This document shows positions 10,589-60,539 of a stretch of 64,000 nucleotides of DNA, piece after piece. Below the pieces are notes generated by a model. It ran no database searches. It was not told where the DNA came from and saw nothing but the letters and a program-made list of their open reading frames with translations. This stretch comes from Escherichia coli (GTDB lineage: Bacteria > Pseudomonadota > Gammaproteobacteria > Enterobacterales > Enterobacteriaceae): assembly GCF_050920415.1 (NCBI RefSeq), contig NZ_CP169309.1; one strand, given 5' to 3'. The position numbers and the translations under genes are program-made. Position 1 is the first letter of the stretch. Every line of letters starts with the position of its first letter.

Positions 10589-10659
10589 AGTAAAAGTCTT
10601 ACATTTAAACGTCTTCGTCAGAACATTTCTATGCGGAGTTATTATTTCACAGGTTTATC

Positions 10660-16869: not shown

Positions 16870-17082
16870 AACTGTAACCTTCGAATTATGGAGTCAGAGA
16901 CAATCTCAGACACGAATGCTTCTATCATATCACTACACGGCGTTCGCTTCAGCCATTCGCCAAAAGTGAGATTGATGGACGTTATTTATCCTGAATTTTG
17001 CAGAAGTGTTAACGCGTCATCTCGTCGCAACCTATAAGTTTGGGTAATATGTGCTGGAATTTGCCCTGTCTGGAGAATCGCA

Positions 17083-32143: not shown

Positions 32144-32399
32144 TGCAGGTCTCCTGCAGTCCACACACGCCGCGTGATGAGTCTGTTGCTCATCTCCGTG
32201 TCACACGTTGTGTAAAAGTGGCACTGCCAATTATGTTGTGTAGGGATAATGACAATGAATAGTTAACTAAATGTTATGCATTGGCAACATTGATGTGAGT
32301 TTTAATTGGGGAACTGTGAACCAGAGGTCAGATAAGCGAAGAATTGGTAGGGCCAATTTGGAGTGAGGTAGATGTCTGTAAAGAAAAGGGCAATTCCCA

Positions 32400-32540
32400 T
32401 CAGAGAATTGCCCTCAGATTGTTGATCTGGTACGCCTTATCTTGCCGGATGCGGCGTGAACGCCTTATCCGTCCTACAGGAATGTGCTGAATCATCCCGT
32501 AGGTCTGATAAGCGTAGCGCATCACGCAATTTGGCGTTTA
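32400..32540. repeat. REP/BIME-type extragenic palindromes downstream of the adhesin gene
   Basis: Motifs gccggatgcggcgtgaacgccttatccg and taggtctgataagcgtagcgcatcac typical of REP units. Confidence 0.7.
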
Positions 32541-32559
32541 CCCATTCTTTAATGGATCA

Positions 32560-35500
32560 TTACCACTGAATACCGGCACCGAGTGCGGCGGAGTATTCAC
32601 CCTGGCTATTGGTACTACCTTGTAATTTGTAGACCCAACGACCATTGGCGCTCACCATCGACACACCTAAAGCAACAGCCGATTCGCCGTTGTAAGTACC
32701 ACCACCAATAGAGGCCATGCTGGCTCCCGGCGTGTAAGCCTGCGGCAGACCGGTCATTGCCATTGCGGAAGCGATACCACCGCTCAGCTTGCTTTCGGTT
32801 TTGGACAGTTTGTTATCCATCTCAACCATGCGCTGATCGGTGTATTGCTTCGTTTCCTGCACACTTTGCTTCAACTGTGCATAGTTCACTGCGTCGTTGT
32901 TGTTCACGCCCGCAGAAACGTTGCTGATGCGAGTCGTACCGCCATTGCCGCCACCGAGAGTAATGTTGCTGTAGTCGATAGAGCCATCAGCTTTGGTGTC
33001 GTAGCGAACGCCACCTGCTTCGGAAGACTTCAGTTGCGAAACGTTAACCGCATCGGTGGCATTAACACCGGCAGCAACGTTGGTGATACGGCGCTGGTTG
33101 GTAGAAGAACCCACAGAGATTGTGTTTTCTTCGTTGGCCACGGAGCCTGTACCCAGAGCGACGCTGTTGTCAGCGGCAGCAATGGATCCAGAACCAATCG
33201 CCACACTGTCTTTACCCTGGGCGTTAGCATCTACGCCATCGGTGTTGGTCTTGAAGTACTTGGTGCTACCTGTGGTTACGATATCGCCAATACCGTTCTC
33301 GATATTGGTCACGCGAGTATCCAGATTCGTCACCTGATTGTTCAGGCTAGTAATGCTCTGGGTATTCTGGGAAACCTGCGCATCCGTTACTTTCAATTGA
33401 CCCACGTTGACCGCATCGGTATCCGCCGAACCAGCCGCGACGTTGGTGATCTGACGTTGACCGTCTTCGCTACCTACGGAGAATTCACCCACAGAGTTCT
33501 GCGGTGTATCCATGTTGTAGGCGGTGTAGCCAGTTTGTGCGCCACGGGTAGTTTGAGAACCATTACCCATTGCAATGCTGTTTGCATGGTTTGCACGCGC
33601 GTTGCTACCGATAGCAATACCGTTAATCGCATCTGCCAGAACTAAAGTGTTCAGGCCGATACCAATACCTGCATTACCATTAACGATGGTTTTTGCGCCC
33701 ATTGCCAGCGAGTCTTCACCGACTGCCAGTGAGTCTTCAGCCGTTGAGTTGGCGTGATAGTATTTGGTCGGCGTGGTGGCTACTGCACCAATCGCATTCT
33801 GCAACTGGCGAACCGTAACGGCATCATGGGCTTCAGAACCATCGGCAACATTGATGATTTGACGATATTTACCATCGTCACCGATCGACAATGCGCCAAG
33901 CAGTTCACCGTCAGTTGTGTCATAACCAATCACAACACCTTCTTCCGATACGCTGGTGTCACGAGAACCTTTAACTATTACACGGCTGGAAACGGAACTG
34001 CTACCCAGGGCGATACCCGTCTCAACTTCGCTGCGGCTGTCCTGACCAATGGCTACGCTGCTGGCTTTGGAAGCAACAGAGTTATAACCCACAGCGGTAG
34101 AGCCAATGCCTGCTGCGCTGGCATCGGTGAAGGTTAAACCGGTGTCATTGGTACGCACATAGTTAATACCTGCACCATTTTCTTCGATGTAGGTTTCACT
34201 GGTGTTACCGGCAAGCTGATTGATGACTTCGCTGTTCTGCTGGATCAGCATATTGGTGTTAAACAGCTGAGAACCGTTGATAGCATCGGTGCTACCTTCA
34301 CCAATGTTACCATCAGCAACGTTTGTGATAATGCTGGCCTTGCCGTCATGACTGGCGTTGTAAGCCCCTTCGCCGTTATTGGCGGTCGCATCCCACAGCA
34401 GCGCGTTCTCATCAAGCGCATCCAGAGCGTCACCGACATTGTTGTACTCGGCATTTGCAATGGTGTAAGTCGGCGCAGTGATAGCACCGTCAGCGTTAAC
34501 TTCTGCATCACCGCCCAGAGCATCAGCGATATATTTGTTAGTGGTATAGAGTTGTGAGCCGTTAATCGCGTCGCTGCTGGTGGCAGAGATTGCACCATTT
34601 GCGACGTTAGTAATCTTACTGGCAGTGTTATCTACCCCACGACCGGCGCTGAATGCACCAGCACCGTCATTGGCTGTTGCATCCCAGAGCAGGGCGTCAT
34701 CCAGCGTGGTATCGATCGCTTCCAGTGCGTCACCAACGTTGCTGTAACTGCCGCCAGCGATGGCATAAGTCGGTGCGGTGATACTGCCATCCGCATTCAC
34801 CACAGCGTTCCCGCCCAGAGCATCGGCAATGTAGTCACTAACGCCATAAAGCTGTGAACCGTTAATAGCGTCGCTACTGGTGGACGAGACTGCACCGTTT
34901 GCAATATCAGTGATTACACTGGGATCATTATTAATGCCGTGTTTGGCGCTGAATTTGCCTGCGGTTGTATCCCAGAGCAGAGCATCACCGAGAGAATCAC
35001 TAAATGAAGTGTTAATCGCAGCCAGAGCATCCCCGACGTTAGTATAGTCAGTGCCGCCAATACTATAGGTTGGCCCGGTTAATACACCTGTATCGCTAAT
35101 ATCAGCACCACCACCCAGATAGGACGTGAATGAATCAGCCAAACCGTAAAGTTGTGAGCCATTTATGGCGTCAGTGCTGTCAGAGGAGACTATGCCAGCT
35201 TGTACGTTGCTGATTTTGTTGGTGGCGTTAGTGCCGTGTGCAGCGGTGAATGCGCCTGCGGCATCGTCCCATTTCAGGGCGTCTTCACCGAGGTTAGTCA
35301 CCGTATCAGTCAGGTTAGTGATATTGGTGGTGTTAGTCGCCACGTTATCGTTAGTGGTTTTCAGCTGAGAACCGTTAACGGCGTCGGTGCTGGTGTCAGA
35401 GAGCTCGCCAGCGGTGACATTAGTGATTTTGCTGGTGACATCGGTGCCGTGTGCGGCGCTGAACGCGGTGCCATTCCACAGCAGGGCATCATCATTGAGA

Positions 35501-37536
35501 CCGTCTATGGCATTGGTCAGGTTAGTGATATTGCTGGTGTTGGTGGCGATGTTGGTGGTGTTGGTAGCGATATTGGTGGTGTTTGCCGCCACATCGTCCT
35601 TGGTCGCTTTCAGCTGAGAACCGTTAACGGCGTCGGTGCTGGTGTCAGAGAGCTCGCCAGCGGTGACGTTAGTGATTCTGTTGGTGGCGTTAGTACCGTG
35701 TGCAGCGGTGAATGCGCCTGTGGCGTCGTCCCATTTCAGGGCGTCTTCACCGAGGTTAGTCACCGTATCAGTCAGGTTAGTGATACTGGTGGTGTTGCCA
35801 GCCACTTCGCTCGTCAGGTTAGTGATGTTGGTGGTGTTAGCCGCCACATCGTCCTTGGTCGCTTTCAGCTGAGAACCGTTGACGGCGTCGGTGCTGGTGT
35901 CAGAGAGTTCGCCAGCGGTGACATTGGTGATTTTGCTGGTGACGTCGGTGCCGTGAGCGGCGCTGAACGCGGTGCCATTCCACAGCAGGGCATCATCATT
36001 GAGACTATCTACGGCATCGGTCAGGTTAGTGATATTGGTGGTGTTGCCAGCCACTTCGCTCGTCAGGTTAGTGATGTTGGTGGTGTTAGCCGCCACATCG
36101 TCCTTGGTCGCTTTCAGCTGAGAACCGTTGACGGCGTCGGTGCTGGTGGCTGAAAGGTCGCCAGCGGTAACGTTAGTGATTTTGCTGGTGGCATCTGTAC
36201 CATGTGCCGCACTATATCCCCTTTTAAGGTTGTCCCATTGTATCGTATTCGTGTTTAGATCCGCTAAGGCGTCGCCAACATTGCCATAAATACCATTTTT
36301 CAGTCTGTAATTCGGGGAAGTCACCACGCCCTGCGAATTGACGGTCGCTCCTCCACCAAGATTATCCGCTACTGACTTACTAATAGCATAAAGCTGTGAT
36401 CCATTGATGGCATCAGTACTGTCAGTGTCGATATCACCTTTTGCCATATTGACAATTTTTCGCTGAGCTGTTGTGTTACCCACGGAGACAGTATCCGCTT
36501 CAGTCGCGACAGAATCAGCACCCAGAGCAATTGAATTTTTACCTTGAGCAGTGGCCTGAGCACCAATTGCAATGCCATTTTCTAAACCGGCATAACTGCC
36601 TTGTCCAAGAGCAATGGCATTTGCCCCACCGGTAATACTCCCATTTCCCAGTGCGATTGCATTTACGCCGTCAGCTTTATTCCCCTGACCGATGGCAATG
36701 GCACCCGCAGCGATTGCCTGGCTTTGATTACCCAGAGCAATCGTATTATCGGTATTTGCAATACTCCCGTAGCCCAACGCGATACTGTTAAGCCCATTTG
36801 CCTCAGCTTTAGTACCCACTGCCGTTGCATTTTCAGCGGCTTCGGTCTCAGCGCCAACCGCAACCGCGTTTGCGGCGCTGGCAATGGACAGTCTACCTAA
36901 TGCAAGGCTGTCTTCACCACTAGCAGCACTCTCTCTACCTGCGGCAATGGAATTAGTTCCTGACGCCTTTGCCAGTCTCCCGAATGCAAGAGCATCCATA
37001 GCACTTGCTACTGTATCCTTGCCCAACGCTATGGTGCCTTCAGCTGTAGCTTGTGCAGAATTCCCCAGTGCAAGGGTATAATCGCTGGTCGCTTTAGCCG
37101 CACTGCCGATGGCGATTGAACGGCTACCCGTGGAAACCGTTGATTGCCCTAAGGCGACCGATCTTTCTCCTGACGAATTACTTGAGAAGCCAATTGCGGT
37201 ACTTCCCACCCCGGCATTAGCTCTTGCACCGACAGCAACACTCCCGCTACCCGTTGTGCCTGTACCCATTGTATCTGATGAGGCGACGGCCTCTTTACCA
37301 ATAGCAATCCAGTTATCACTCAGTGGCGTTTCGCCTGCAATTTCTTCTGCGCTTTTACCACCGTCAAGTGAAACCGAAGCATAGGCTCCAACTGATGAGA
37401 GTAACCCACCCGCAACCAGGGCAGAAATTAACAGCTTACTGCGCCCGCTCTTTTTGCCACGGCTCTTCGCCGTTTCGCTGGCAACGCTATAGCTGCCCGT
37501 CGCCGGATTCCAGATAACTTTAAATATTTTGTTCAT
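32560..37536 (-). CDS. upaG: Trimeric autotransporter adhesin (YadA-like; UpaG/EhaG-type), 1658 aa
   Basis: N-terminal extended signal peptide [18 protein letters not shown]...; long Gly/Ala/Ser/Thr/Asn-rich passenger with YadA-like head and neck repeats; C-terminal membrane anchor ...[31 protein letters not shown]. Confidence 0.85.
35150..36230 (-). repeat. In-frame tandem repeats (about 250 bp / 83 aa, roughly 4 copies) inside the adhesin passenger domain
   Basis: Protein repeat unit ...[61 protein letters not shown]... recurs; identical antisense ORFs in the track (35165, 35387, 35636) reflect the nucleotide repeats. Confidence 0.8.
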
Positions 37537-37579
37537 TATTGATGCTCTCTATTCCTTGATATAAGCGCAGAAGCTGCAT

Positions 37580-38263
37580 TTATTTTTTGTTTTTTCGCTG
37601 CCGATTTTCAGCAGGTTGAACAGTATCGAACTGAATATTGTCCATATTGATGGACAATTTCAGATACTTCAGGTTATTAGGTGAAACGCCTTTCAATGTC
37701 AGATTAATGTCTTGCCATTGACCAGGCATTAATTGCAGGGTGGAGTTCATGGTGGTGTTGAACAGTAATTGCTGCCATTTTGCCAGCGCTTTTTTATCGG
37801 TGGGTCTTTCATTGCCCCATGTAGCTTGAAAGCCAATATTTGATACGGGAACGCTTAATAGGTTGACCAGCGAAATACGAATAACGCTGCCATTTTCAAC
37901 CGCATCAATAGCCAGCACCCGGCCAGCCAAACCAACCGAGCCATTGTTTAAAATGAAGTATTTTGTTTGTGCTGGGTTAAATTCGGTGAAGACAAATTCG
38001 TCCTGTTTGTCTTTAACCGCCTTTACTACACCTGCCAGCACTTTAGTGGTGTTTGCAATATTAATCTGTTGATTTTCAACAAACTCTATCTTTCTTTTAT
38101 ATTGTTCTTGTTGTTTTTCAAGAATCTCTATTTTACTTTTTTGCAATTCTTGCTGTTTGGCAAGATCGTCGATCAGATTCGCTTTCTCAATATAGTCACA
38201 CCCAGTCAATACCCAGAGTGGCAATGTTATCAACATGCTTAATAGTGCTTTTTTGATGCTCAT
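37580..38263 (-). CDS. Predicted lipoprotein with coiled-coil segment, 227 aa, immediately upstream of and co-oriented with the adhesin gene
   Basis: Signal peptide with lipobox MSIKKALLSMLITLPLWVLTGC; Q/E/K-rich helical region; 43 bp from adhesin start. Confidence 0.6.
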   Translation of the reverse strand: MSIKKALLSMLITLPLWVLTGCDYIEKANLIDDLAKQQELQKSKIEILEKQQEQYKRKIEFVENQQINIANTTKVLAGVVKAVKDKQDEFVFTEFNPAQTKYFILNNGSVGLAGRVLAIDAVENGSVIRISLVNLLSVPVSNIGFQATWGNERPTDKKALAKWQQLLFNTTMNSTLQLMPGQWQDINLTLKGVSPNNLKYLKLSINMDNIQFDTVQPAENRQRKNKK

Positions 38264-38775
38264 AGGGTGAATTCCTTTTCATGATCCCGATACGTTAACT
38301 GTTACGGCGTAATCATCCTTTTTATGAATGATTCGAGTGGAAAATATACGCAATATAAATTTATAAGAGACTTTTTCTATTAATTGTTGTATTAATTGGT
38401 AGTGCGAATATGACATTAAATGTCAGACAATTTCAGATTGTAGCCAATAATATTAATCGCGCGGATTTTAATTATCGATGTCAATCAATGTCAAATGTTT
38501 CACCGGATGAAAACACCGACCAGGAGAAATATTAATATTCAGCATGGTGATGTTTTCTTGGGAAGTGTGTGATGCTGAGCGATTAATATAAATAATTAAT
38601 GGCTGTTACAGGCATTAATATGTATTAATTCATTGTTATCGCTTATATATCACTTTCTTATTCCATACCATAATTTCAGAATTTAGCCTGTAATATGCGC
38701 TTCAAAGAGCCGGTGAGATGGAAGCAATAGTGATAAGAATGTTAAAGACATTCGTATCTGGTAGCAGGCTCCTGC

Positions 38776-38798
38776 ATGTGCCAGCAGGAGCGAGTAAA
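38776..38798 (-). terminator. Hairpin downstream of yibL (gctcctgc-atgtgcc-agcaggagc)
   Basis: 8-bp inverted repeat read directly in sequence. Confidence 0.4.
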
Positions 38799-38835
38799 TC
38801 GTAAGAGGCTGTGATTACAGCGGTGAGACAGGTAC

Positions 38836-39198
38836 TTAAAATGCGGTCTTAGAGAATCCGGTCATCTCTTGCAGGCCCATTTCACGGCCCAGCGCGGTCA
38901 TCGGATGCACAACTACCAGTCCGCGAACACTTTTCTTCAGCTTGCCCATATCAGCCTGCTCTTTTTTGGTAATCGCGCGCTGGAAGGGCATTTTCATCAG
39001 TTTTTGCGCTTCTTTACTGAGTTTCTGGCTGTGAACTTCACGCAGGCGAGCAATTTCGGCTTCCAGCGTGGCTTTTTCTTTTTCCAGTTCGGCATATTTA
39101 TCTGCGGCTTCAACCAGTGACAGGTCAGCCTGCTGATGGCGGATAGCGTCCAGGCGATCGCTGAGACGTTTGATTTCGTTTTTTTCGACTTCTTTCAT
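38836..39198 (-). CDS. yibL: Ribosome-associated protein YibL, 120 aa
   Basis: [55 protein letters not shown]... Confidence 0.85.
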
Positions 39199-41454: not shown

Positions 41455-41800
41455 ATGTTTTTACCCGAGAGGGCTGGGGTGAGGCTTTTCCCTCACCCAA
41501 ACCCTCTCCGTGAGGAGAGGGGCCGCGCCGGATGCGGCGCAAACGCCTTATCCGGCCTACAAGAACGTGCAAATTCAACAAATTGTGCTTTTTTTTGTAG
41601 GCCTGATAAGCGTAGCGCATCAGGCAATCAGCCCATCTTCTCCATGTGGAGAGGGGCCGCGCCGGTTGCGGCGTAAACGCCTTATCCGGCCTACAAGAAC
41701 GTGCAAATTCAACAAATTGTGCTTTGTTTTTGTAGGCCTGATAAGCGTAGCGCATCAGGCAATTAGCCCCACCGTCTCCATGTGGAGAGAGTGGGGTTGG
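41455..41800. repeat. Tandemly duplicated BIME/REP unit (two copies of about 125 bp) in the mtlA-mtlD intergenic region
   Basis: Two near-identical blocks containing gccggatgcggcg(c/t)aaacgccttatccggcctacaagaacgtgcaaattcaacaaattgtgc...gtaggcctgataagcgtagcgcatcaggc. Confidence 0.8.
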
Positions 41801-44616: not shown

Positions 44617-45195
44617 ATGGATCTGTTGATTGTTTTAACTTACGTGGCGCTGGCATGGGCGGTCTTTAAAATCTTCCGTATTCCGGTGAATCAGTGGACG
44701 CTGGCGACGGCGGCGCTGGGAGGCGTTTTTCTGGTAAGCGGTTTGATTTTGTTGATGAACTACAACCACCCTTACACTTTTACCGCACAGAAAGCGGTGA
44801 TTGCTATTCCCATCACGCCACAGGTGACGGGGATCGTGACTGAAGTCACTGACAAGAATAATCAGCTTATTCAGAAGGGCGAGGTGCTTTTTAAGCTCGA
44901 CCCGGTACGTTATCAGGCGCGAGTCGACAGACTTCAGGCTGACCTGATGACGGCGACGCATAATATAAAGACGCTGCGCGCGCAGCTCACTGAAGCGCAA
45001 GCCAATACCACCCAGGTTTCAGCGGAGCGTGACCGCTTGTTTAAAAATTATCAACGTTACCTGAAAGGCAGCCAGGCGGCGGTAAATCCGTTCTCAGAAC
45101 GTGATATCGACGATGCGCGGCAGAATTTTCTCGCGCAGGATGCGCTGGTGAAAGGTTCGGTGGCGGAACAGGCGCAAATCCAGAGCCAGCTCGAC
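44617..45195 (+). pseudogene. yibH: yibH 5' fragment (HlyD-family membrane fusion protein), 193 codons, interrupted by IS insertion
   Basis: [23 protein letters not shown]... reading frame runs into IS left end at 45196; the rest of the gene resumes at 47324. Confidence 0.85.
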
Positions 45196-45296
45196 TGTCA
45201 GCGCCAATGATATAAGACAGTAATTCACCATTTGGATTGTCCGCTCCACCCAACATGTTGTTTCCTTAAGGTTCCTACACCACAAAGGGAACACTC

Positions 45297-46343
45297 ATGC
45301 TGAGCAGAGAGGACTTTTACATGATAAAGCAAATGCGCCAGCAAGGTGCGTATATTGTTGATATTGCCACTCAGGTTGGTTGCTCTGAGCGGACTGTCAG
45401 ACGGTACCTGAAATACCCGGAACCTCCGGCCAGAAAAACACGCCACAAAATGGCCAAACTCAAGCCGTTCATGGACTATATCGACATGCGTCTGGCTGAG
45501 AATGTCTGGAACGGCGAGGTCATCCTGGCGGAAATCAAAGCGATGGGTTATACCGGTGGCCGTTCCATGTTGCGTTACTACATCCAGCCCAAACGTAAGA
45601 TGCGGCCATCGAAGAAAACGGTTCGCTTCGAAACTCAGCCCGGTTACCAGCTACAGCATGACTGGGGAGAAGTTGAGGCTGAGGTTGCCGGGCAACGATG
45701 CAGGGTTAACTTCGCGGTTAATACGCTGGGGTTCTCACGTCGCTTCCATGTCTTCGCGGCACCAAAGCAGGATGCTGAACATACCTATGAGTCACTGGTC
45801 CGCGCCTTTCGCTACTTCGGCGGCAGCGTGAAAACCGTGCTGGTCGATAACCAGAAAGCCGCAGTGCTGAAAAATAACAACGGGAAGGTGGTGTTCAACT
45901 CCGGGTTCCTGCTGCTGGCCGATCACTATGGCTTCCTGCCACGGGCCTGCCGTCCACGAAGGGCCAGAACCAAAGGTAAGGTGGAACGGATGGTGAAATA
46001 CCTCAAGGAAAACTTCTTCGTCCGGTACCGCCGGTTCGACAGCTTCGCCCATGTTAATCAGCTACTGGAGCAGTGGATGGCTGACGTTGCCGACAGGCGG
46101 GAACTTCGCCAGTTCAGGCAGACACCGGAACAGCGCTTCACGCAGGAACAGGTGCATCTGCAGGCGCTGCCAGGTACGGACTTCGATACCAGCTACTTCG
46201 ATATCCGTCATGTCTCCTGGGATGGCTATATCGAGGTTGGCGGGAACCGTTACAGCGTGCCGGAAAGCCTGTGTGGCCAGCCGGTATCAATACGGATCTC
46301 GCTGGATGATGAACTGCGATTTACAGTAATGAGCAACAGGTAG
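45297..46343 (+). pseudogene. istA: IS21-family transposase IstA, frameshifted near 3' end (348 aa as read; about 390 aa if the -1 shift around 46313-46343 is repaired, then ending at 46468)
   Basis: HTH N-terminus and integrase-core-like body; alternative frame open from 46313 to TGA at 46466-46468, which overlaps the istB ATG. Confidence 0.8.
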
Positions 46344-46455
46344 CATCGCACCGTCTCTGTTCGGCTGTATACGGCTGGCAGACCGTGCCGGAGCATCACG
46401 CCCCACTCTGGCAGCAGGTCAGTCAGGTGGAACACAGGCCGTTGAGTGCCTATGA

Positions 46456-47262
<807 letters not shown>

Positions 47263-47323
47263 TGACCAATAGCGGACATTAAAAATGGCGAAAAACGGCC
47301 AATAATCTTGGCGTTGACACGAC

Positions 47324-47881
47324 AGTATGGTTAACGGTGAGCAGTCGCAGATTGTCAGCTTAAGGGCGCAGCTTACCGAAGCGAAATATAACCTTGAGCA
47401 GACCGTCATTCGCGCGCCGAGCAATGGCTACGTTACTCAGGTACTGATCCGCCCAGGTACATACGCAGCTGCCTTGCCGCTACGTCCGGTGATGGTTTTC
47501 ATCCCCGAGCAAAAACGGCAAATTGTCGCCCAATTTCGGCAGAACTCGCTGTTACGTCTGAAACCCGGCGATGATGCGGAAGTAGTGTTTAACGCGCTAC
47601 CTGGGCAGGTGTTCCACGGCAAACTGACTAGTATTTTACCTGTCGTGCCAGGTGGTTCGTATCAGGCGCAGGGGGTACTGCAATCATTAACCGTCGTACC
47701 CGGCACGGACGGTGTGCTGGGAACCATCGAACTGGACCCTAACGCTGATATCGATGCTTTACCCGACGGCATCTACGCCCAGGTGGCAGTTTACTCCGAC
47801 CATTTCAGCCATGTTTCGGTGATGCGGAAGGTGCTGCTAAGAATGACCAGTTGGATGCATTATCTTTATTTGGATCATTGA
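47324..47881 (+). pseudogene. yibH: yibH 3' fragment (185 codons); joins in-frame with 44617-45195 to give 378 aa once IS and TSD are removed
   Basis: ...[32 protein letters not shown]... typical HlyD/EmrA-like; frame arithmetic confirms. Confidence 0.85.
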
Positions 47882-48185
47882 GGGGGGCGGGGGAGATTAT
47901 GGAACTTTGCTCCTTGTAAGGACTAATTATTTTTGCATATTACTTCATTGGCTGCGATGATTTTTCTTTAATATTCATTAGGTTGAGAAGTTCTTGATGA
48001 GTGTGCTCTCATTGGATTTTTTATCCGTCTTGTTCTGCCGCAGGATCAGACTATACATCGTCGAGATCGCAATGATTATGAATTGTTCCTCTGCGACGAT
48101 GCTAATCAAAAAAGTGCTGGAGTGCTTTTCCATCTATTGCGATGATGGTTTTATTATCTGAAGAATGACAGTCACACATCCAGCT

Positions 48186-48457
48186 AATAAAGAACTCGTG
48201 AAATTTTCCAGGACTGATACAGGACACAACTCTGGTAATGATATCGTGAATAGGAATACCATATTAAAAATCACCATATTGCTTCAACAAATCGAGATGA
48301 GTCTCACCAGAATCCTCTATATCTTCCCATCCTTCAGCTCCGGAAATGATGGCGAAAATAATCAGCACTAGGATATCTGATAATTTATACTCTACTTTCC
48401 AGACTTGTCTGTAATCGGGACAGTAGAAATATGCTCCATTAATTTTTTAAGTTCCAT
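48186..48457 (-). pseudogene. H-repeat (ISAs1-family) transposase N-terminal fragment, degraded copy 1 (frameshift and in-frame stop)
   Basis: Begins ATG-GAA-CTT-AAA-AAA (MELKKLM...) like copy 2 at 50276-50572 but carries a 1-nt deletion and a stop. Confidence 0.7.
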
Positions 48458-48915
48458 TTTTTCTCCTTGTTTATGTAAGGAGTGTCTGAATATATATAAG
48501 CTATGAAAACACTTATTAAATAATAAGGGATATCTTGATTATTGGACATTTAGTGCTAATTGTTTAGTGCAAAAAATCGGCGTTATATGGTCTTTACCTT
48601 TATTACCCTTGCTGTTTTCCTCCAGCCTATGAAAAGCCAGCTTCAGTAAATCGTACCGCCCGAACATTGTAAGATACAATTTACTGACAACTTAGTACAT
48701 TATTAATATCACATTTAAGCTTTTTTTTCAGATTATAAAGCCTGTCCACTTTATAATCTTTGCAATTATAAACGTATTCTTTTTTTGTTTTCATATCAAT
48801 GACACTAACCCCTCGCATGTTACTACCGTTGTCGTAATTGCTAAACACGGAGTACTTATATCCACTTTGAATAAAACTAACGCTAAAGTAATCCGTTTGA
48901 AATCTGGAGTAATGA

Positions 48916-49128
48916 TTATAAAAAATCCTGAATACATTGGTCCATCTGAAATGAATTGAAATTTATCCCATGCTGACTATTCATTTCATAAATCAACGTT
49001 TCACCAAAACTTGTTAATGACAAAGTTCCTTTGGATGTATTACATAAAAAATAATTATTTCCTGCGTTTAGAGTCCAGGGAATTCCAGATAAAAAAATAA
49101 AAATTAATGCTCTATCTATATTGCTCAT
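48916..49128 (-). CDS. Small hypothetical protein (70 aa) with N-terminal hydrophobic segment; candidate immunity protein for the orphan muramidase-like toxin domain
   Basis: ORF start overlaps the stop of the orphan toxin ORF by 17 bp; MSNIDRALIFIFLSGIPWTLNAG... Confidence 0.35.
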   Translation of the reverse strand: MSNIDRALIFIFLSGIPWTLNAGNNYFLCNTSKGTLSLTSFGETLIYEMNSQHGINFNSFQMDQCIQDFL

Positions 49129-50276
49129 AATTAGCCCTTATTCTGTCATCATATCCTCGCTGACTTTGCCCATTATAACATAGAGCAAAGTTAAGCCAAT
49201 CTTTATCTCTAATAGCACGCAATAATACAGGATTAGATTTTATGAAGTTAATGAATGCCGCCAGATGGTTTTTCTCTGACTCTGAAATCGATATTATAAA
49301 CTCTTCGGGCGAAGAGTACCCGGCAGCTTGGTAATTTGAAGCCAATATCTGAAATTTACCCCACGATGCCGATTTAAGCGCAGCTTGCTTATCTAAAACA
49401 TATGCACGAAGTAATTTTTGATATTGCTCCGATCGTGTTCCATAACCGCCAGAACGGCTGTTGGAAATATCAGGTTGAGAATCATACACACCATTCGTAT
49501 ATCGATGGAAATGATGTCTTTCAAAAAGAATTGAGGGGACGTAATCATCTTCTTGTTCAAATTTAAAATAGCTACCGGAACTACCAGTTTCAGTTTTTGC
49601 AACAGCTTTAATTGCAGCCACTTCGCATTGTAGTGTCCTTGCAGCATTTTCATAGTCTGCATCATCAATGGTATCTCCGTTATAAAATCGTAAAAATTCC
49701 AATGGAATAAGTTCATTATTTACAGGAGTTTTTGGGTAATTGCTATTATTAATAGCATTCAAAAACACAACCGGATGAAAATGCCACACAGCATCATCAC
49801 TATTAAACGGAGACACCCCGCTCATCCACTCCAGATCCAGCTGCCACTTTTCACAGTATGCCACTTCCTCGGGTCCAGATCTTTATAAAACCCTTCCCAG
49901 CGTCCCGTCGAGCGACCGCCGTACCACTCGCTGTGGTGTCTGACTGTCAGACGATTCACCACATTTCTCACCAGTGGTTCACGCACGGTCAGCGCCTGTC
50001 TGATCTCTTCCTCCGTCACTTTTCCATCACCGTCCTGATCCATACCCGCCATCAGCTCACGATAAAAGGGCGGTACCTGCTCATACAGCCACTCATCTCC
50101 CTGTTCTGCGGCACGGCTTATTGAGTCAAACGCTTCCGGCACCCATCCTTCGTACGGGCTGTACGTCATGTCACCGCTGCTGTTCTCCTCCAGCGGCTGA
50201 AAACCCAGCTTCAGTAAATCATACTGTCCGGCCTCTTCAACATCCTTCTGTGGCAGCCAGCCGGTTCCGGTGATAT
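49112..50276 (-). pseudogene. Displaced (orphan) effector 3' module: shared pre-toxin region with EF-hand loop plus a distinct C-terminal N-acetylmuramidase-like domain; 5'-truncated and carrying a 1-nt frameshift near 49866
   Basis: 49764-50276 is near-identical to 52116-52630 of the full-length effector; downstream domain has ...FERHHFHRYT... and ...SWGKFQILASNY... motifs; no start codon; two overlapping ORFs (49822-50391, 49112-49864). Confidence 0.75.
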
Positions 50277-50572
50277 TAAGCCGCCTCTGGTTTCCTTTTA
50301 ATAAAGCACTCGTGAAATTTTGCAGGACTGATACAGGATACAACTCTGGCAATGGTATCGTGAACAGGAATACCATTATCAAAATCACCATATTGCTTCA
50401 AAAAATCGAGATGTGTTTCCCCAAAATCCTCTATATCTTCCCAGCCTTCTGCACCCGAAATAACGGCACAAATAGTCAACAGTAGAATATCCGATAATTT
50501 ATGTTGCACTTTCCAGGCTTGTCTGTAATCGGGGATAATAGAAATATGTCCCATCAATTTTTTAAGTTCCAT
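50276..50572 (-). pseudogene. H-repeat (ISAs1-family) transposase N-terminal fragment, copy 2 (about 92 codons then truncated)
   Basis: [64 protein letters not shown]... matches the start of E. coli H-rpt proteins, then loses homology. Confidence 0.8.
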
Positions 50573-50873
50573 TTTGTTCTCCTTAATTATGTAAGGAGTA
50601 TTTGATCATGTATAAGCAATAAAAAACAGCTTTAGGTAATGAGGAATATCTCAATTTTCAAACATAAAATGCGAATTGTCTAGTACAAAAAAGCAGCGTT
50701 ACGTGATCTTTCCCTGCCTGCCTGTACGATATCCCTCAAAAATAATTTTCCAGTCAGTTATTCATGTCTAACTTAAAATCATAAAACATTTAAATTAATA
50801 ATAAACAAATTCAACCTAGTCGCATTATTATTTTAATAACACAGCATCGATTTCATAAAAAACTGCACAATGG

Positions 50874-51284
50874 TCATCCAGTCCATTTGCAATCAGTACC
50901 ATCATCATTATATGCCTCAATATTTTCTTCAAACTCAGTTGTTTTCCCACTTATTGATTTATAATGAAACAAATTAAATCTTGCACCTTGTGTGGAAACA
51001 ACATACAACCCATTAATTTTTCCATTTACAACCTCGCTCCATGCATAAGAAAATTCAGAAGGCCTGTCATCGAAAGTCACTTCTAATTTATTTATAAACG
51101 CAAGAGGTATAAATTTTGAGGATTTCTCATAAATCACATAACCTAAAAAAATATCGCCAGACGATATTTCAACAAACTTTAAATTTGTTTTCCCAGCGCT
51201 AAAACAGCCTACCGTTGTTTGTTGTTTAGCCAATAAACAACAAGGCACCAAACAAAACAGTAAAACCAATAAGTTAACTTTCAT
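50874..51284 (-). CDS. Candidate immunity protein (136 aa, cleavable signal peptide) for the upstream GH19-like effector
   Basis: MKVNLLVLLFCLVPCCLLA...; 5 bp downstream of effector stop; small secreted protein. Confidence 0.55.
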   Translation of the reverse strand: MKVNLLVLLFCLVPCCLLAKQQTTVGCFSAGKTNLKFVEISSGDIFLGYVIYEKSSKFIPLAFINKLEVTFDDRPSEFSYAWSEVVNGKINGLYVVSTQGARFNLFHYKSISGKTTEFEENIEAYNDDGTDCKWTG

Positions 51285-51289
51285 ATCAA

Positions 51290-53779
51290 TTACTCCAGTT
51301 CAGTTATTCGTCTCTCTACAAATGTGGATATATTCCTTTTTTCTATTCCATATACTTTTCTATCACCCTCACGCCCTTCCTGAGGAAACGGATGCAGGTC
51401 AATTAATTCTTTCGCCCTTCTATAACCTTTTAATGCTTCTTCGTTACTCTTGATCGTCCCTCTTCGGGAGCTATCAGGATCATGCCATATCCCCCATCCC
51501 AAAGCATATACTTTATTATCATATACGTCACTATCATCAAACAAGAAATCGTCGTTCATTGCTTTCTGATTTAAATGCTCGGCAGCAAGTGAGGTAACCA
51601 ATTTATTAAATATCGACAACCGTTCATCATAATGATTATACCCTCCATTAATCACTGCTGTAATTTTATTAAAATCATCATTTTTAGCATCTTCATTTAT
51701 TCTTTTGAATATATTGAAATACCAAAACGCAGATAATACGCAATGTGGGGAGGATATAAGTTTATCTCTTGCGGAATCTGAAGATGTTACGTCCTCATTG
51801 ATATATTCCCCATAGGCGGTGTAATTACTTTCCCCTGTAACTTGTATTAAGCCTCGGCCATACCACGGACTATATGAAGCTGATTCACCATTAATTTCTT
51901 TGGTATATCTAAAATAACCGCTCTCGTGAATAATTTGAGCAAGAAAATGGGCTTTTTCTCTACAAGTGGTCATACCAAACCGAATAAACCCTGCATTTAT
52001 ATCGTAGAGGTACCTTTTGAGAAGACCTTCACTTACTGCAGGAGCAACTTTTTTTAATTCATCTAATGTTATATCTCTGTTGCAAGCACACACAGATTTG
52101 GAATTAATAGCGTCCAAAAACACAACCGGATGAAAATGCCACACAGCATCATCACTATTAAACGGAGATACCCCGCTCATCCACTCCAGATCCAGCTGCC
52201 ACTTCTCACAGTATGCCACTTCCTCTGTGTCCAGATCTTTATAAAATCCTTCCCACCGCCCTGTCGAGCGCCCTCCGTACCATTCGCTGTGGTGTTTAAC
52301 TATCAGATGATTCACCACATTTCTCACCAGTGGTTCACGCACGGTCAGCGCCTGTCTGATCTCTTCCTCCGTCACTTTTCCATCACCGTCCTGATCCATA
52401 CCCGCCATCAGCTCACGATAAAAGGGCGGTACCTGCTCATACAGCCACTCATCTCCCTGTTCTGCGGCACGGCTTATTGAGTCAAACGCTTCCGGCACCC
52501 ATCCTTCGTACGGGCTGTACGTCATGTCACCGCTGCTGTTCTCCTCCAGCGGTTGAAAACCCAGCTTCAGTAAATCATACTGTCCGGCCTCTTCAACATC
52601 CTTTTGTGGCAGCCAGCCGGTTCCGGTGATATTAAACCACCACTGCTGCGATTCATCCGTGATCGGTGTCGTGGCTTCCCGCGGAAGAACGCGCTGAGCA
52701 CCCAGTGTGGCTGCGGTTGCGGTAAATACCTCCTGTCCCGGAACGGCCTGCCGGGTGTATAAAATTATCCCTTTTGGTGCCAGAACAGTCCGTTTTTCTC
52801 CCTTAACGCCTGCCGGGTTGGATAAGAACTTTGGCATATTCGGGTCTGTACTCAGAACCTCCAGATGGACGAACCACTCGCGCTCAATCTCACCGCTTCC
52901 CTCGCCAGGATAATCCTCGCATCCCATAAATCCGACCGGTGTTCCGGCACTGACTTTCCACTCTTCCGTTTCGTCGACCGTCTGTACCGAGTCAAAAATG
53001 CCTTTTGCCTTCGCCTTCTGCATCCACTCAGGCATCAGCATCTGTATTTCGCCATCTGACTCCATCAGATCCGGATCCAGGGTCACCCAGTACTGCTCAT
53101 TCCCCGGTTTATTGCCTTCCAGCAGGCGAACCAGTCCGAATGTCGTCAGGACCGGCTGGCCGTTATTGGTCACGTAAAAACGTCCGGTCCGGGATGACAC
53201 AAACCGATCTCCCGCATTAAGTGTCCTGTTTCCGCTGATTTTCGGGGGTATCCAGTACGTGGCATGATCTCCGCTTTCCTGCCCCTCGGGAAGGCCGTTC
53301 TTTCCCGGGATGTATCGGTGCAGCAATATGCCACCATGCCCGGTTTTAACTTTATAGCAGGGGGAGCCGGGATAATCGTTCACCGGGGCCAGATGCATAT
53401 AGAGACAGTAAAATTCCAGCCAGCTTTCTTTTTTTTGCGGGTCTGGCTGGCACTGCGATTTCACCAGAACAAATGTGCTGCTGTAACGGAGTTGCTGCCC
53501 TTTGTAGGTGCCTTTCAGGTAATCATTATTTATCCGGTACGCCGCAATGGTGCCATCGGCCATAAACTGAAGAGGAACCGGTTCTCCGGTAGCGGCGGTA
53601 TCCGGTTTCAGGGCTGATAACGGATTAGACACGTCACTGATATGTATCCCGCCGTGCCACAGCCCGTTTCCACCCAGCAGCCAGGTTCCGTGCGCTTCTT
53701 TGTCAATAAGCCGCATTATCTCATCCAGCGAGCGAAACTCTTTGCCTTCTTTATCCCTGATGGGATGGCTGATTTTCAT
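51290..53779 (-). CDS. VgrG-linked candidate T6SS effector, 829 aa: N-terminal domain of unknown function, central EF-hand-like Ca-binding loop, C-terminal GH19/lysozyme-like peptidoglycan hydrolase domain
   Basis: 9 bp downstream of vgrG stop; DQDGDGKVTEEE loop; C-terminal ...AHFLAQIIHESGYFRYTKE...YGRGLIQVTGESNYTAYG...LSAFWYFN... resembling the GH19 / COG3179 signature. Confidence 0.7.
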   Translation of the reverse strand: MKISHPIRDKEGKEFRSLDEIMRLIDKEAHGTWLLGGNGLWHGGIHISDVSNPLSALKPDTAATGEPVPLQFMADGTIAAYRINNDYLKGTYKGQQLRYSSTFVLVKSQCQPDPQKKESWLEFYCLYMHLAPVNDYPGSPCYKVKTGHGGILLHRYIPGKNGLPEGQESGDHATYWIPPKISGNRTLNAGDRFVSSRTGRFYVTNNGQPVLTTFGLVRLLEGNKPGNEQYWVTLDPDLMESDGEIQMLMPEWMQKAKAKGIFDSVQTVDETEEWKVSAGTPVGFMGCEDYPGEGSGEIEREWFVHLEVLSTDPNMPKFLSNPAGVKGEKRTVLAPKGIILYTRQAVPGQEVFTATAATLGAQRVLPREATTPITDESQQWWFNITGTGWLPQKDVEEAGQYDLLKLGFQPLEENSSGDMTYSPYEGWVPEAFDSISRAAEQGDEWLYEQVPPFYRELMAGMDQDGDGKVTEEEIRQALTVREPLVRNVVNHLIVKHHSEWYGGRSTGRWEGFYKDLDTEEVAYCEKWQLDLEWMSGVSPFNSDDAVWHFHPVVFLDAINSKSVCACNRDITLDELKKVAPAVSEGLLKRYLYDINAGFIRFGMTTCREKAHFLAQIIHESGYFRYTKEINGESASYSPWYGRGLIQVTGESNYTAYGEYINEDVTSSDSARDKLISSPHCVLSAFWYFNIFKRINEDAKNDDFNKITAVINGGYNHYDERLSIFNKLVTSLAAEHLNQKAMNDDFLFDDSDVYDNKVYALGWGIWHDPDSSRRGTIKSNEEALKGYRRAKELIDLHPFPQEGREGDRKVYGIEKRNISTFVERRITELE

Positions 53780-53788
53780 GTTCAGTCC

Positions 53789-55990
53789 TTATCGTGAGAA
53801 TCTTCCCGGCCGTTGTGGCGGTACCTTATCCTGCTGGGGAGGATCAAAGGCTTCCTGTACATTTTTCCGTGGTGGCTCCGCCCCTTCAGTTCCAGGTCCG
53901 CCATTGTCATAATCTGCCAGCGCTTTCAAAACCGCCGGTCGTAGTGTCGGCACCGGCGTTCCCGGACTACCGCCGCTATTGAGATTGATTTTCGGCCCGA
54001 CGATGTCCACGCCCCCTGAATGGATGACCACAAACGAACCACCCACCTTCAGGGTGATTTTACCGCCACTCTCCAGTACGATTTCATCCCGGACCTTCAT
54101 TCCCAGCGCACCGGTAATCTTCCTCGCCAGGTCGCCCTTCACCTCCAGACTGTGCGTTCCCTCCACCAGACTGATATGGTTCCCCGTCGTCTTATGCTCC
54201 TGCTTCCCTTCCACCGTCACTTTACGGTCGTTTCTGACATACAGGCCGTCATCGTGACTCACGCTCACCGTCCGGTCATTCGTCACCTTCAGCGTCTGGT
54301 CATTACGTACCGTTATGCGCCGGTCGTTCGCCACCGTGATACTCTGGTCGTGGCCCCCTTCTTTTCTGGTGCCGACCTCAACCGTCTGCCCCTTCACCAC
54401 CCTTATCTTCTGGTCGTTACCGATGGTCTCCGTATGGTCATGCTTCACGTCCGTCGTCCGGTCGTTAAGCACCTCCGTGTCCATGTTCTTCTGCGCGTGG
54501 ATATACACCTGCTCACTGTCCGTCGCATCCTCGAAACGCAGTTCATTAAAGCCGCTTCCTTTATAGGTCTTCGAGCGGATGGTCATCTGCGTCCGCGTGC
54601 CCGGTAAATCCCCCGGTGAACGGTTATCTTCATGGTAGGTCCGCCCCGTCACAATGGGCTGGTCCGGGTCGCCGTTCAGAAAGTCCACTATCACTTCCTG
54701 ACCCACACGCGGTATCGCCAGATTGCCGAACCCCGGTCCCGCCCATGCCTGCGACACCCGTATCCAGCATGAACTCTCCTCCGTCATCCCGTGATAACGG
54801 TCCCAGTGAAACTTCACCCGTACCCGGCCATGCTCGTCGCAGAATATCTCCTCGCCCTTCGGCCCGGTCACGATGGCACTCTGCGGGCCGTCCACCTTCG
54901 GCTTCGGCAGGGGCTGTGAGCGCCAGGTCCGGTCTGCCGGGATGACCGTGATATGGTTACTCAGTGTCGTTCCCCTCCCCTGGCTCCCGTGCAGCGCCTG
55001 CGGCTGGCTCCCCGTCAGCGTGCTGCTCACCACCTGCCACTCACGGTTCGGGTTCGCTCCCTGTACCGGATGCCCCGTCAGGGTGAACCGCCGTCCCGGC
55101 CACAGCGCCGGGGAGTTACTGATACCTGTGGCGGTTTCAGCACTGTTACGCAGCCCTTCCAGCCGGTAGCGGGTAAAGTCCTGACCATGCTGCTCGTCCT
55201 TGTAGCGCCCCGGCCAGTCCAGGATTTTGTACTGCTTCAGTTGCTCGTTGAGGTTTTCAGCATCCTCAATGTAAATACCCGGCCAGTCCGGCACCTTAAA
55301 CGTGTGGTCTTTTGAACGCACCTGCGAGGGCCGCACCTGCGCCTGGTAGCGGAACAGGCTGATGCACGCCGTCGTCACCTCACGGGTGTTCGGGTTAAAC
55401 GGTATCTCCCCGTACACCGGCAGGCCCGCCACATCATCGCACAGCGTGAGCGTCTGCTCCGGGCTGTCGTCAGCGTATCTGTCATAAAAGAAGATGCCTT
55501 CCTCCGCCCACAGCCGGGTCAGAAACGCCAGGTCGCTTTCACCGTACTGGACGCAGAACTCCCGTGCCGGGTGGCTCTCATAAAAGCGCGGCGTCCACTG
55601 CGTCACTCCGTCCTCGTTTAACAGCGTGGCGGAGATGGCCTGAATGTCCTGCTGCTGGAAGATTCGGTAGTTCTGCCGCAGCCCGCTGCGCCACAGGGGC
55701 GGGCGTATCTGAAGGTGGTACTGCATCTGCCAGCCGTTGTGCTCCTTCATGCCTAACCCCGACACCACACCGCTCACATAACGCAGCGCCGTGCCACCCT
55801 GCCAGATGGTCAGCACGGCCCCCTTCTCCAGCAGCTTCTCCGCCGTCTGGCGGAACGAGTCGCTGGCAACGTCCACATCCAGGACGAACGGCGATGAGTA
55901 TGCCTGCGTGAGGCGGAAATCCACCACCGCGAACGTCTCCGGCACCAGTCCGTCCACCGTCAGCGTAAAACGCAGCCCTTTTAATGACAT
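53789..55990 (-). CDS. vgrG: T6SS spike protein VgrG (copy B), 733 aa
   Basis: MSLKGLRFTLTVDGL...; gp27/gp5-like regions (...GQEVIVDFLNGDPDQPIVTGRTYH...) and C-terminal beta-helix repeats (VKHDHTETIG...ITVANDRRITVRNDQTLKVTNDRTVSV...). Confidence 0.9.
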   Translation of the reverse strand: MSLKGLRFTLTVDGLVPETFAVVDFRLTQAYSSPFVLDVDVASDSFRQTAEKLLEKGAVLTIWQGGTALRYVSGVVSGLGMKEHNGWQMQYHLQIRPPLWRSGLRQNYRIFQQQDIQAISATLLNEDGVTQWTPRFYESHPAREFCVQYGESDLAFLTRLWAEEGIFFYDRYADDSPEQTLTLCDDVAGLPVYGEIPFNPNTREVTTACISLFRYQAQVRPSQVRSKDHTFKVPDWPGIYIEDAENLNEQLKQYKILDWPGRYKDEQHGQDFTRYRLEGLRNSAETATGISNSPALWPGRRFTLTGHPVQGANPNREWQVVSSTLTGSQPQALHGSQGRGTTLSNHITVIPADRTWRSQPLPKPKVDGPQSAIVTGPKGEEIFCDEHGRVRVKFHWDRYHGMTEESSCWIRVSQAWAGPGFGNLAIPRVGQEVIVDFLNGDPDQPIVTGRTYHEDNRSPGDLPGTRTQMTIRSKTYKGSGFNELRFEDATDSEQVYIHAQKNMDTEVLNDRTTDVKHDHTETIGNDQKIRVVKGQTVEVGTRKEGGHDQSITVANDRRITVRNDQTLKVTNDRTVSVSHDDGLYVRNDRKVTVEGKQEHKTTGNHISLVEGTHSLEVKGDLARKITGALGMKVRDEIVLESGGKITLKVGGSFVVIHSGGVDIVGPKINLNSGGSPGTPVPTLRPAVLKALADYDNGGPGTEGAEPPRKNVQEAFDPPQQDKVPPQRPGRFSR
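54085..54930. repeat. About 0.85-kb block near-identical to 58422-59267 (internal vgrG segment shared by both paralogs, offset 4337 bp)
   Basis: Antisense ORFs 54020-54607 and 54616-54945 are letter-identical to parts of 58204-58944 and 58953-59534; VgrG proteins identical over about 270 residues. Confidence 0.85.
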
Positions 55991-56145
55991 GATGACCTCC
56001 CTGGTATTGCTACAGGAAAAAGTAATTAACCGATATTGACCGTACCTTCTGATATTCTCTCACTGATTCATTATCTGTATTTCCCATGAACATTCTCATT
56101 TCAACAGGAAAACCAACGAATTGTAGCCATGACAATAAGTTAACA

Positions 56146-57075
56146 TTAATAATTCCTCAACGAATAAGGAGGAGATGCCCTGTCCCCATCAATAGTAACC
56201 ACGACCTGATTTGATCTTATTTTGAATATATTATCATTACCGCCATGATAGCCAAATCGTGCTAAAAAATCCTGAAATAGACCAGGTCCTCTATAAGGTC
56301 CACAGATTCTCCAAACCCGCCACTCCTCTATGCCATACGTTATTTTATCTATAGGATTAGTACACTCTCTTTCTGCCCGCCAGTTCATAATAGAAAGAAA
56401 ATACTCATATATATATTGTTCTGCAAACCACTCTTGATTAACTATTGTAAATTCTACCGTCCCTATATTATAACGATGAATGCCCGGTAAAAAGGCATAA
56501 TAATCGTTCAATGTGACATCAAAGGATAGCTCTTTCCCTGGTAATATCTCGCGCCAAACAGATTTACTTTTCCATTCACCAAAGCTACATTTTGTTTTTT
56601 TTAAAAAATCCAACTGAATGTTATCCATTATCGGTATAAACACACCACTACACAAGGAAGAGTAAGGCCCGCCGTTAACGTCAAGAGGAAGAGTTAGTCG
56701 ATGAACAAAATAAGATCCCTGGCTTTTATTCGATAAAACCACTGCAGCTGCTACAATATTTTCTTTCTGATGCACGGAAAGATGAAGATATATTTTATTT
56801 TTATCCTGATTATACTGACTCTCATTTTTACTGATAGTATAATATTGAAAAACAGCATAGGCTGAAAGATCATCATAATAATCATAATAATTAAGCCTTG
56901 TCGGTTCTACACGAGGATAGACACCAAGTTTTTCCATTACTCCATTCCAATGTAACTTCCCATATCTGTAATGAACCGCATAATCGCCAGAGATATCATA
57001 AGCAAATATTGGATGCACCCAAGAAAAAAAAGCAATAAAAACAATCCATCTAGCAAGCATATACTCCCCCGTCAA
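56146..57075 (-). CDS. Candidate immunity protein (309 aa, N-terminal signal peptide) for the upstream HExxH effector
   Basis: MLARWIVFIAFFSWVHPIFAYD... signal peptide; 9 bp downstream of the metallopeptidase-like gene; Trp/Tyr-rich. Confidence 0.5.
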   Translation of the reverse strand: MTGEYMLARWIVFIAFFSWVHPIFAYDISGDYAVHYRYGKLHWNGVMEKLGVYPRVEPTRLNYYDYYDDLSAYAVFQYYTISKNESQYNQDKNKIYLHLSVHQKENIVAAAVVLSNKSQGSYFVHRLTLPLDVNGGPYSSLCSGVFIPIMDNIQLDFLKKTKCSFGEWKSKSVWREILPGKELSFDVTLNDYYAFLPGIHRYNIGTVEFTIVNQEWFAEQYIYEYFLSIMNWRAERECTNPIDKITYGIEEWRVWRICGPYRGPGLFQDFLARFGYHGGNDNIFKIRSNQVVVTIDGDRASPPYSLRNY

Positions 57076-57084
57076 ATAAAAGCA

Positions 57085-57930: not shown

Positions 57931-58011
57931 ATAAATCCTCCTTGGTATATATTTTCACTACAAACCCTGTTCCATTTATGCAAAAACACGCCAATTACAG
58001 GCGGTCACTCT

Positions 58012-60324: not shown

Positions 60325-60539
60325 ATAAACCCCATAGCTACCGCACTCATAGTGCAAACCATACGGGCTTATAAGAAAGGCTTAAGTGAGATATCTGCCA
60401 GATAGCAACTATTAGGAAAATATTTATATCACCATGATAAATATGTGATTTATTGGGAGATAACAAACCATCAACATTTTCTGCCCTTTTTCCCATCACC
60501 AGGCCATACTGATATTTTTCCTCGCACAAAGGACTCGGC

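Follow-up and report, generated by a model that had tools for sequence, protein, structure and literature searches.

A stretch of 64,000 nucleotides of the Escherichia coli chromosome (contig NZ_CP169309.1, assembly GCF_050920415.1), called the window below, was analysed around a gene for a trimeric autotransporter adhesin and a lipoprotein gene placed directly upstream of it on the same strand. The two genes were flanked by lldR and lldP on the downstream side and by yibL, yibT, mtlR, mtlD and mtlA on the upstream side. The locus is almost certainly a two-gene operon of the sadBA type, situated in the Escherichia/Salmonella chromosome between the lld and mtl operons, which encodes an adhesin of the UpaG/EhaG/SadA family together with its SadB helper. 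This system is already described and named, and the window carries a rare, already catalogued allele of it. Gene structure, domains, homology, synteny and between-strain variation were established here, and little new is added to the UpaG/EhaG/SadA family, the fibre structure and the SadB helper, which were published in 2008-2014. A first-pass annotation of the letters alone had proposed a large adhesin with a co-oriented lipoprotein gene, and its coordinates and numbers proved right and its overall interpretation was supported, but the name and characterisation of the system went unrecognised in it.

It was reported by Grin et al. (PMC3953254) that sadA and its Escherichia and Shigella orthologues keep one conserved site between the mtl and lld operons, that the small lipoprotein gene sadB lies 44 bp upstream of sadA in the same operon, and that the orthologues of both genes were lost from E. 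coli K-12. In the window the spacer was exactly 43 bp, as it had first been read, and the same 43 bp separated the two genes in all seven E. coli alleles compared (the annotated ehaG included; the CFT073 UpaG sequence itself lay outside the alignment). UpaG of strain CFT073 and EhaG of O157:H7 share with the adhesin of the window both the site between lldP and yibL/mtl and the overall architecture, and in an O157:H7 genome the gene at this position is called ehaG by RefSeq (1588 aa). EhaG, UpaG and SadA are described as positional orthologues.

Both products were matched to solved Salmonella proteins, and homologues of solved structure exist for the lipoprotein and for a large part of the adhesin. 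Residues 23-227 of the lipoprotein aligned without gaps to residues 3-207 of the SadB structure (STM3690; PDB 4c47), a full-length alignment with 52% identity over 205 aa (E 4.7e-71). For the adhesin, residues 1241-1506 were 89-92% identical to fragment 2yo0 of SadA, its positional orthologue in Salmonella enterica, and residues 1381-1584 were 78% identical to fragment 2yo3. The exact RefSeq entries of the two proteins were WP_001033275.1 ('YadA-like family protein') and WP_000023346.1 ('DUF3251 domain-containing protein'), while other RefSeq records name the lipoprotein 'SadB/YajI family lipoprotein' or DUF3251. Since pipelines label most alleles only with the two former names, the locus will go on being rediscovered by readers without its literature.

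Among 5,426 complete E. coli genomes, 4,154 had the conserved 3' end of the adhesin gene and 4,149 had the lipoprotein gene. About 77% of these genomes carried both genes, and the copies were all chromosomal and almost always single. In a K-12-like genome, positions 32503-38831 of the window were replaced by 7 bp and both genes were gone; the endpoints of this deletion lay inside the adhesin-proximal repetitive extragenic palindromic (REP) element and a few bases past the stop codon of yibL. The gap thus spans the AT-rich leader in front of the lipoprotein gene too, so the leader belongs to the module.

The exact allele was found in one of the 5,426 complete genomes (NZ_CP169399.1), and the next best match over the 6.6-kb locus was about 85% identical. 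Over the window, the differences from NZ_CP169399.1 came to a handful of substitutions, plus two indels of 1 bp within an insertion sequence (IS) element. An anomaly specific to the locus was rejected as the cause of this rarity: in 1-kb steps the whole window was 93-98% identical to the K-12-like genome, with a minimum of 87% within the waa core cluster (10001-11000), and the lldPR flank was itself an uncommon haplotype. Not being special to the locus, the rarity reflects a lineage sparsely sampled among complete genomes. Some accessions in the protein cluster of the adhesin are from strains that we take to be Escherichia cryptic clade I.

Table 1. Features of the adhesin locus and of the interrupted yibH gene in the window (positions count from the first letter of the window)
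Feature	Position	Strand	Basis or remark
Trimeric autotransporter adhesin gene, 1658 aa	32560..37536	-	Uninterrupted open reading frame (ORF); positional orthologue of UpaG/EhaG/SadA
Extended signal peptide region (ESPR), residues 1-48	37393..37536	-	Pfam PF13018, E 2.3e-15
N-terminal head, YadA_head left-handed beta-roll repeats, residues 109-354	36475..37212	-	Pfam PF05658
Array of four tandem units (DALL motif, neck, coiled coil), residues 432-751	35284..36243	-	Unit alignment and Tandem Repeats Finder (TRF)
Three additional units with DALL motifs, more diverged, 96-99 aa each, residues 752-1045	34402..35283	-	Unit alignment
Conserved membrane-proximal stalk, residues 1241-1584	32785..33816	-	Identity to SadA fragments
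YadA-type membrane anchor, four beta-strands per chain, residues 1598-1658	32563..32745	-	PF03895, E 2.9e-19
sadB-like gene, 227-aa lipoprotein with N-terminal coiled coil and C-terminal beta-sandwich	37580..38263	-	Match to PDB 4c47
Lipobox L-T-G-C, residues 19-22, Asp at +2 (inner-membrane retention signal)	38198..38209	-	Read from the sequence
42-bp (14-codon) tandem repeat in sadB, 2.4 copies	38067..38165	-	TRF; aligns to the coiled coil of 4c47
Spacer between sadB and the adhesin gene, 43 bp	37537..37579	-	No terminator-like site
AT-rich putative regulatory/leader region, 572 bp	38264..38835	-	GC 33% against about 52% in the surroundings
Candidate sigma-70 promoter, TTGACA-18 nt-TAAAAT	38465..38494	-	11/12 consensus positions; about 200 nt upstream of the lipoprotein start
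Intrinsic-terminator-like hairpin, 13 pairs then a T run	32386..32415	-	Probable end of the operon transcript
Convergent REP pair just downstream of the adhesin stop	32444..32527	.	Between the adhesin stop and the terminator-like hairpin
yibH-N	44617-45210
istA	45297-46343
istB	46465-47262
yibH-C	47327-47881

Adhesin domains and the 249-bp repeat array

The adhesin showed the build of a type Vc autotransporter, with a YadA-type anchor ending in an aromatic residue, an ESPR signal peptide, and a passenger composed of head, neck and coiled-coil parts. The extended signal peptide and the C-terminal anchor had both been predicted for the 1658-aa ORF and were recovered by Pfam; a profile search had been named in advance as the check that could overturn the anchor, and it found the domain. 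The protein terminated in ...GIQW, with Trp as the last residue, and contained no Cys. In PDB sequence searches the anchor matched the Hia anchor structures 3emo, 2gr7 and 2gr8 and also the YadA anchor, and the passenger matched solved fragments of SadA, BpaC, AtaA and UspA1. Only non-cognate NCBIfam models (Ata, Vomp, EmaA, BimA, YadA) were hit by the adhesin, all far under their curated cut-offs, which gives support at the family level only. A homotrimer in the outer membrane with a role in adhesion, as shown for the orthologues UpaG, EhaG and SadA, would be expected.

The passenger had been called long and of low complexity. Its composition was indeed biased, with A, G, T, S and N making up 57%, yet it was built of recognisable domains, and at least 15 YadA_stalk/neck matches were found along it by Pfam, so that the passenger is modular and the description as low complexity did not stand. 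The relationship to SadA extends over the stalk and over the repeat units, which match solved modules (the solved SadA fragments being 2yo0, 2yo1, 2yo3, 2ynz, 2yo2, 2yny and 3zmf), whereas SadA differs in its length, in the sequence of its head and in the number and arrangement of its DALL/neck modules.

About four in-frame repeats of 250 bp had been placed in the central 1 kb of the gene. Four in-frame units were confirmed with a period of 249 bp (83 codons; TRF, 35309-36190, 3.5 copies, 82% matches), but the array occupied 27-45% of the gene and was therefore N-proximal and not strictly central. At the protein level the four units measured 83, 83, 85 and 69 aa, each made up of a DAL(L/K)W motif plus a neck and a short coiled coil rich in N and T, and they matched the SadA fragments 3zmf, 2yo2 and 2ynz. 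The units were 65-82% identical to one another at the DNA level; the diverged units that follow them showed 49-67% identity among themselves and with the array units. Of the exact direct repeats, the longest measured 113 bp at an offset of 249, and the offsets of all long exact repeats were divisible by 3. To judge from these sequence features, the array units are duplicated structural modules, not low-complexity filler.

Variation between alleles

Among the seven alleles the adhesin was 1439-1753 aa long, with repeat units of 234, 249 or 255 bp (249 bp here, unlike the 234 or 255 bp of other alleles) present in 0 to 4.8 copies. The last 450 aa were 94-98% identical to the window, the head 57-73% and SadB 65-86%, and the head was the most variable part of the adhesin between strains. 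The same pattern was seen with EhaG, whose last 450 residues were 94% identical to the adhesin of the window, but whose head was 57% identical (up to 73% in other alleles) and whose length was 1588 aa instead of 1658 aa. All the compared alleles shared with the window the conserved C-terminal part and a lipoprotein gene behind the 43-bp spacer.

The array had been suspected to be a hotspot of length variation. This idea is supported on the evolutionary time scale, where length differed between allele lineages only. The stronger form, in which the array would be a contingency locus with frequent slipped-strand or RecA-mediated copy changes within a lineage and phase-like variation of fibre length, is improbable. 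It could draw on the units being in frame and sharing exact repeats of up to 113 bp, and on the differences between strains in unit length, copy number and protein length given above. On the other side, the exact protein is on record from 68 contigs and two near-identical variants from 2 and 1 contigs, and all three full-length variants had exactly 1658 aa, so no array variation was seen within the allele. Besides, units with 65-82% DNA identity would be a poor substrate for frequent slippage, and the copy-number differences coincided with allele lineages that differ in head and sadB as well. A rapidly switching contingency locus is thus not supported, and unequal recombination between the 249-bp duplicated stalk modules would alter the length of the fibre over evolutionary time.

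The synonymous divergence (dS) and the ratio of nonsynonymous to synonymous divergence (dN/dS) were compared by segment. For lldP dS was 0.17-0.27 with dN/dS of at most 0.01, and for yibL, whose protein was identical or nearly so, dS was 0.43-0.58 with dN/dS of about 0. The anchor region (last 450 aa) gave dS of 0.36-0.58 and dN/dS of 0.02-0.07, sadB gave 0.46-2.3 and 0.11-0.19, and the head gave 0.75-2.5 and 0.16-0.30. With dN/dS < 0.3 in every segment, both genes are under purifying selection. Silent-site diversity was highest near the adhesin operon, suggesting haplotypes that are old and linked, and as judged from these rates the alleles look like old, linked blocks under purifying selection, not like the products of fast adaptive change. 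As a separate observation, the protein of yibL (38836-39198) was the same in most strains compared, yet the dS of this gene was two to three times that of lldP.

SadB might be imagined as a helper specific to its allele, recognising its own adhesin by the variable N-terminal part. Its identity between alleles tracked that of the head and not that of the anchor, and dN/dS of sadB exceeded that of the flanking genes more than tenfold. If this were true, poor display would be expected from mismatched alleles of sadB and adhesin, along with a constraint on recombination inside the operon. We regard this as unlikely. More simply, promoter, sadB and head may belong to a single haplotype block, old and tightly linked, in which the raised dS comes from hitch-hiking, which is in line with dS of 0.46-2.3 in sadB and of about 0.5 even in yibL with its near-identical protein. 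The comparison of seven alleles fits both readings, co-adaptation of the unusually diverged SadB alleles with their adhesins and plain linkage.

With this variation the adhesin locus is among the most polymorphic surface-protein loci of E. coli. SadA is reported to be highly conserved within Salmonella, in contrast to the highly polymorphic E. coli locus. UpaG has been considered as a vaccine antigen, and for such a use it matters that the head diverges strongly from allele to allele.

The SadB-like lipoprotein and predicted expression of the operon

The N-terminus of the lipoprotein was MSIKKALLSMLITLPLWVLTGC-D, so that Cys22 is followed by Asp23 and then by Tyr. The sequence characters of the SadB subgroup were found: a lipobox Cys with Asp at +2, a coiled coil joined to a beta-sandwich, and the spacer to the adhesin gene. 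Compared with SadB (4c47), the Cys22 lipobox, Asp+2, the operon position, the Q-rich N-terminal coiled coil and the C-terminal beta-sandwich were shared, while the coiled coil was only 42% identical and the E. coli alleles vary among themselves. From Cys22 and Asp+2, the lipoprotein is predicted to be anchored in the inner membrane as SadB is. A side observation is that the 42-bp in-frame repeat of the gene encodes the Gln- and Lys-rich heptads of the SadB coiled coil, and the helper gene is thus repeat-bearing as well.

An accessory role of the lipoprotein had been suggested from its position, and such a role is published for the orthologue. Salmonella SadB is a homotrimer with a nine-heptad Gln-rich coiled coil and three beta-sandwich domains, anchored in the inner membrane by the triacylated Cys22; this anchoring was shown by fractionation and mass spectrometry, and the Asp+2 logic was verified (PMC3953254). 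Without SadB, less SadA was present on the surface of both E. coli and Salmonella, and it was more protease-sensitive and differently distributed. The authors proposed that SadB acts near the Sec translocon, where it would hold the three nascent chains in register (PMC3953254). For the lipoprotein of the window, a helper role would follow by analogy, the effect having been shown only for Salmonella SadB with SadA.

The only other helper described as encoded beside a trimeric autotransporter is TpgA of Acinetobacter, which aids the display of AtaA. TpgA is unrelated to SadB: it has BamE-like and OmpA-like domains and, unlike an inner-membrane coiled-coil lipoprotein, binds on the outer-membrane side, to peptidoglycan and to the barrel.

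The AT-rich leader had been noted beforehand as a long AT-rich upstream region and was confirmed by its GC content. The mean column identity of the leader between alleles was 73%, with one well-conserved block, and a terminator-like hairpin of yibL lay at its upstream edge. The candidate promoter was the best promoter-like site of the region and fell within the best-conserved block of the leader in five alleles, the divergent ehaG allele included. Since the 43-bp spacer holds no terminator-like site, and a promoter-like site lies upstream and a terminator-like site downstream, sadB and the adhesin gene are inferred to be co-transcribed. Rfam, searched over the whole window, gave no match in or near the adhesin locus.

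REP elements had been described as flanking the locus, which was correct for the downstream side but not for the upstream one. The tail motif of REP occurred 6 times in the window against 0.08 expected by chance. The other two convergent REP pairs were found at 41547-41745 in the mtlA-mtlD spacer, beyond yibL, yibT, mtlR and mtlD, i.e. four genes away from the start of the lipoprotein gene, and REPs are therefore confined to the 3' side of the locus.

Taken from published work on the orthologues, SadB function, adhesion, biofilm formation and H-NS control may be carried over to the window as follows. The adhesin would be exported by the Sec system through its extended signal peptide (type Vc), and three chains with four C-terminal strands each would form one 12-stranded barrel in the outer membrane. 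The passenger would cross this barrel and form a long trimeric fibre, tipped by the beta-roll head, with neck and coiled-coil modules alternating beneath it. SadB, a trimer fixed by its lipid anchors on the periplasmic side of the inner membrane, would raise the amount and quality of the displayed adhesin, presumably by keeping the three nascent chains in register. The leader would carry the promoter and is a likely site of H-NS silencing. UpaG is among the listed H-NS-repressed genes, and SadA was not expressed under laboratory conditions (PMC3953254); both fit the AT-rich leader. UpaG and EhaG are further reported to bind two extracellular-matrix proteins, fibronectin and laminin, and to promote both aggregation and biofilm; their cell tropisms differ, and the ligand specificity is known to differ between the two.

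No observation spoke against the sadBA reading, though some points limit this transfer. The candidate promoter and terminator are consensus matches only. The Pfam match of the lipoprotein to DUF3251 was weak (E 0.067) and NCBIfam gave no significant match for it, the PDB sequence search being decisive instead. With a head 57-73% identical to those of the compared alleles, ligand specificity is not transferable from UpaG/EhaG. Finally, that SadB interacts directly with SadA could not be demonstrated even in Salmonella (PMC3953254), whether by cross-linking, pulldown or phage display. The last point, together with the paralogue YajI, which is linked to no autotransporter, would suit a lipoprotein that is a mere neighbour with an unrelated function, next to an adhesin that needs no dedicated helper. 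Such a reading is very unlikely, as the spacer was 43 bp in 7/7 alleles, the genome counts of the two genes were near-identical with both absent from K-12, and the display of SadA was reduced and altered in E. coli and Salmonella on loss of SadB.

Records of the array and other parts of the window

Ten of the 13 members of the 90% protein cluster of the adhesin were partial entries, all of them C-terminal fragments starting at residues 464-759. This means that draft assemblies break in or just after the array, and short-read assemblies routinely break within it. These fragments might hint that the repeats, or even the long ORF as a whole, arose through misassembly or belong to a pseudogene in decay; this is hardly credible, given an identical full-length protein from 68 contigs that include complete chromosomes (with 3 more for the variants), a frame open over 1658 codons and dN/dS of 0.02-0.30; collapse of the array on better data had been named as a danger to the first reading, and the array proved to be no artefact.

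Several features apart from the adhesin locus were also observed. The only Rfam match of the window was a JUMPstart RNA element (RF01707, 55 bits) at 2635-2673 on the plus strand, in the leader of the rfaQ (waaQ) operon for the lipopolysaccharide core. At about 16870-17080, yibB (htrL), which is located between kbl and rfaD in the K-12-like genome, was absent, and rfaD was directly followed by kbl.

The gene yibH (HlyD-family) was split by the IS21-like element ISEc62 (44617-47881, with the parts listed in Table 1). Relative to NZ_CP169399.1, 1-bp indels near 46319 and 46552 truncate istA in the window and leave istB intact, and the reverse holds in that record. These two indels could reflect true differences, or else errors of sequencing in either record.

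The region of about 48000-60500 had no counterpart in the K-12-like genome, which has rhsA-yibA-yibG there. It contained remnants of an ISAs1 transposase, a gene for an N-acetylmuramidase that overlaps an EF-hand gene, and a pair of orphan vgrG/tssI genes, and the large hypothetical genes after each vgrG are candidate type VI effector and immunity cargo.

For mtlD, a mechanical ORF call ran upstream through the REP pairs at 41547-41745 and reached 530 aa, while the annotated protein corresponds to 1149 nt.

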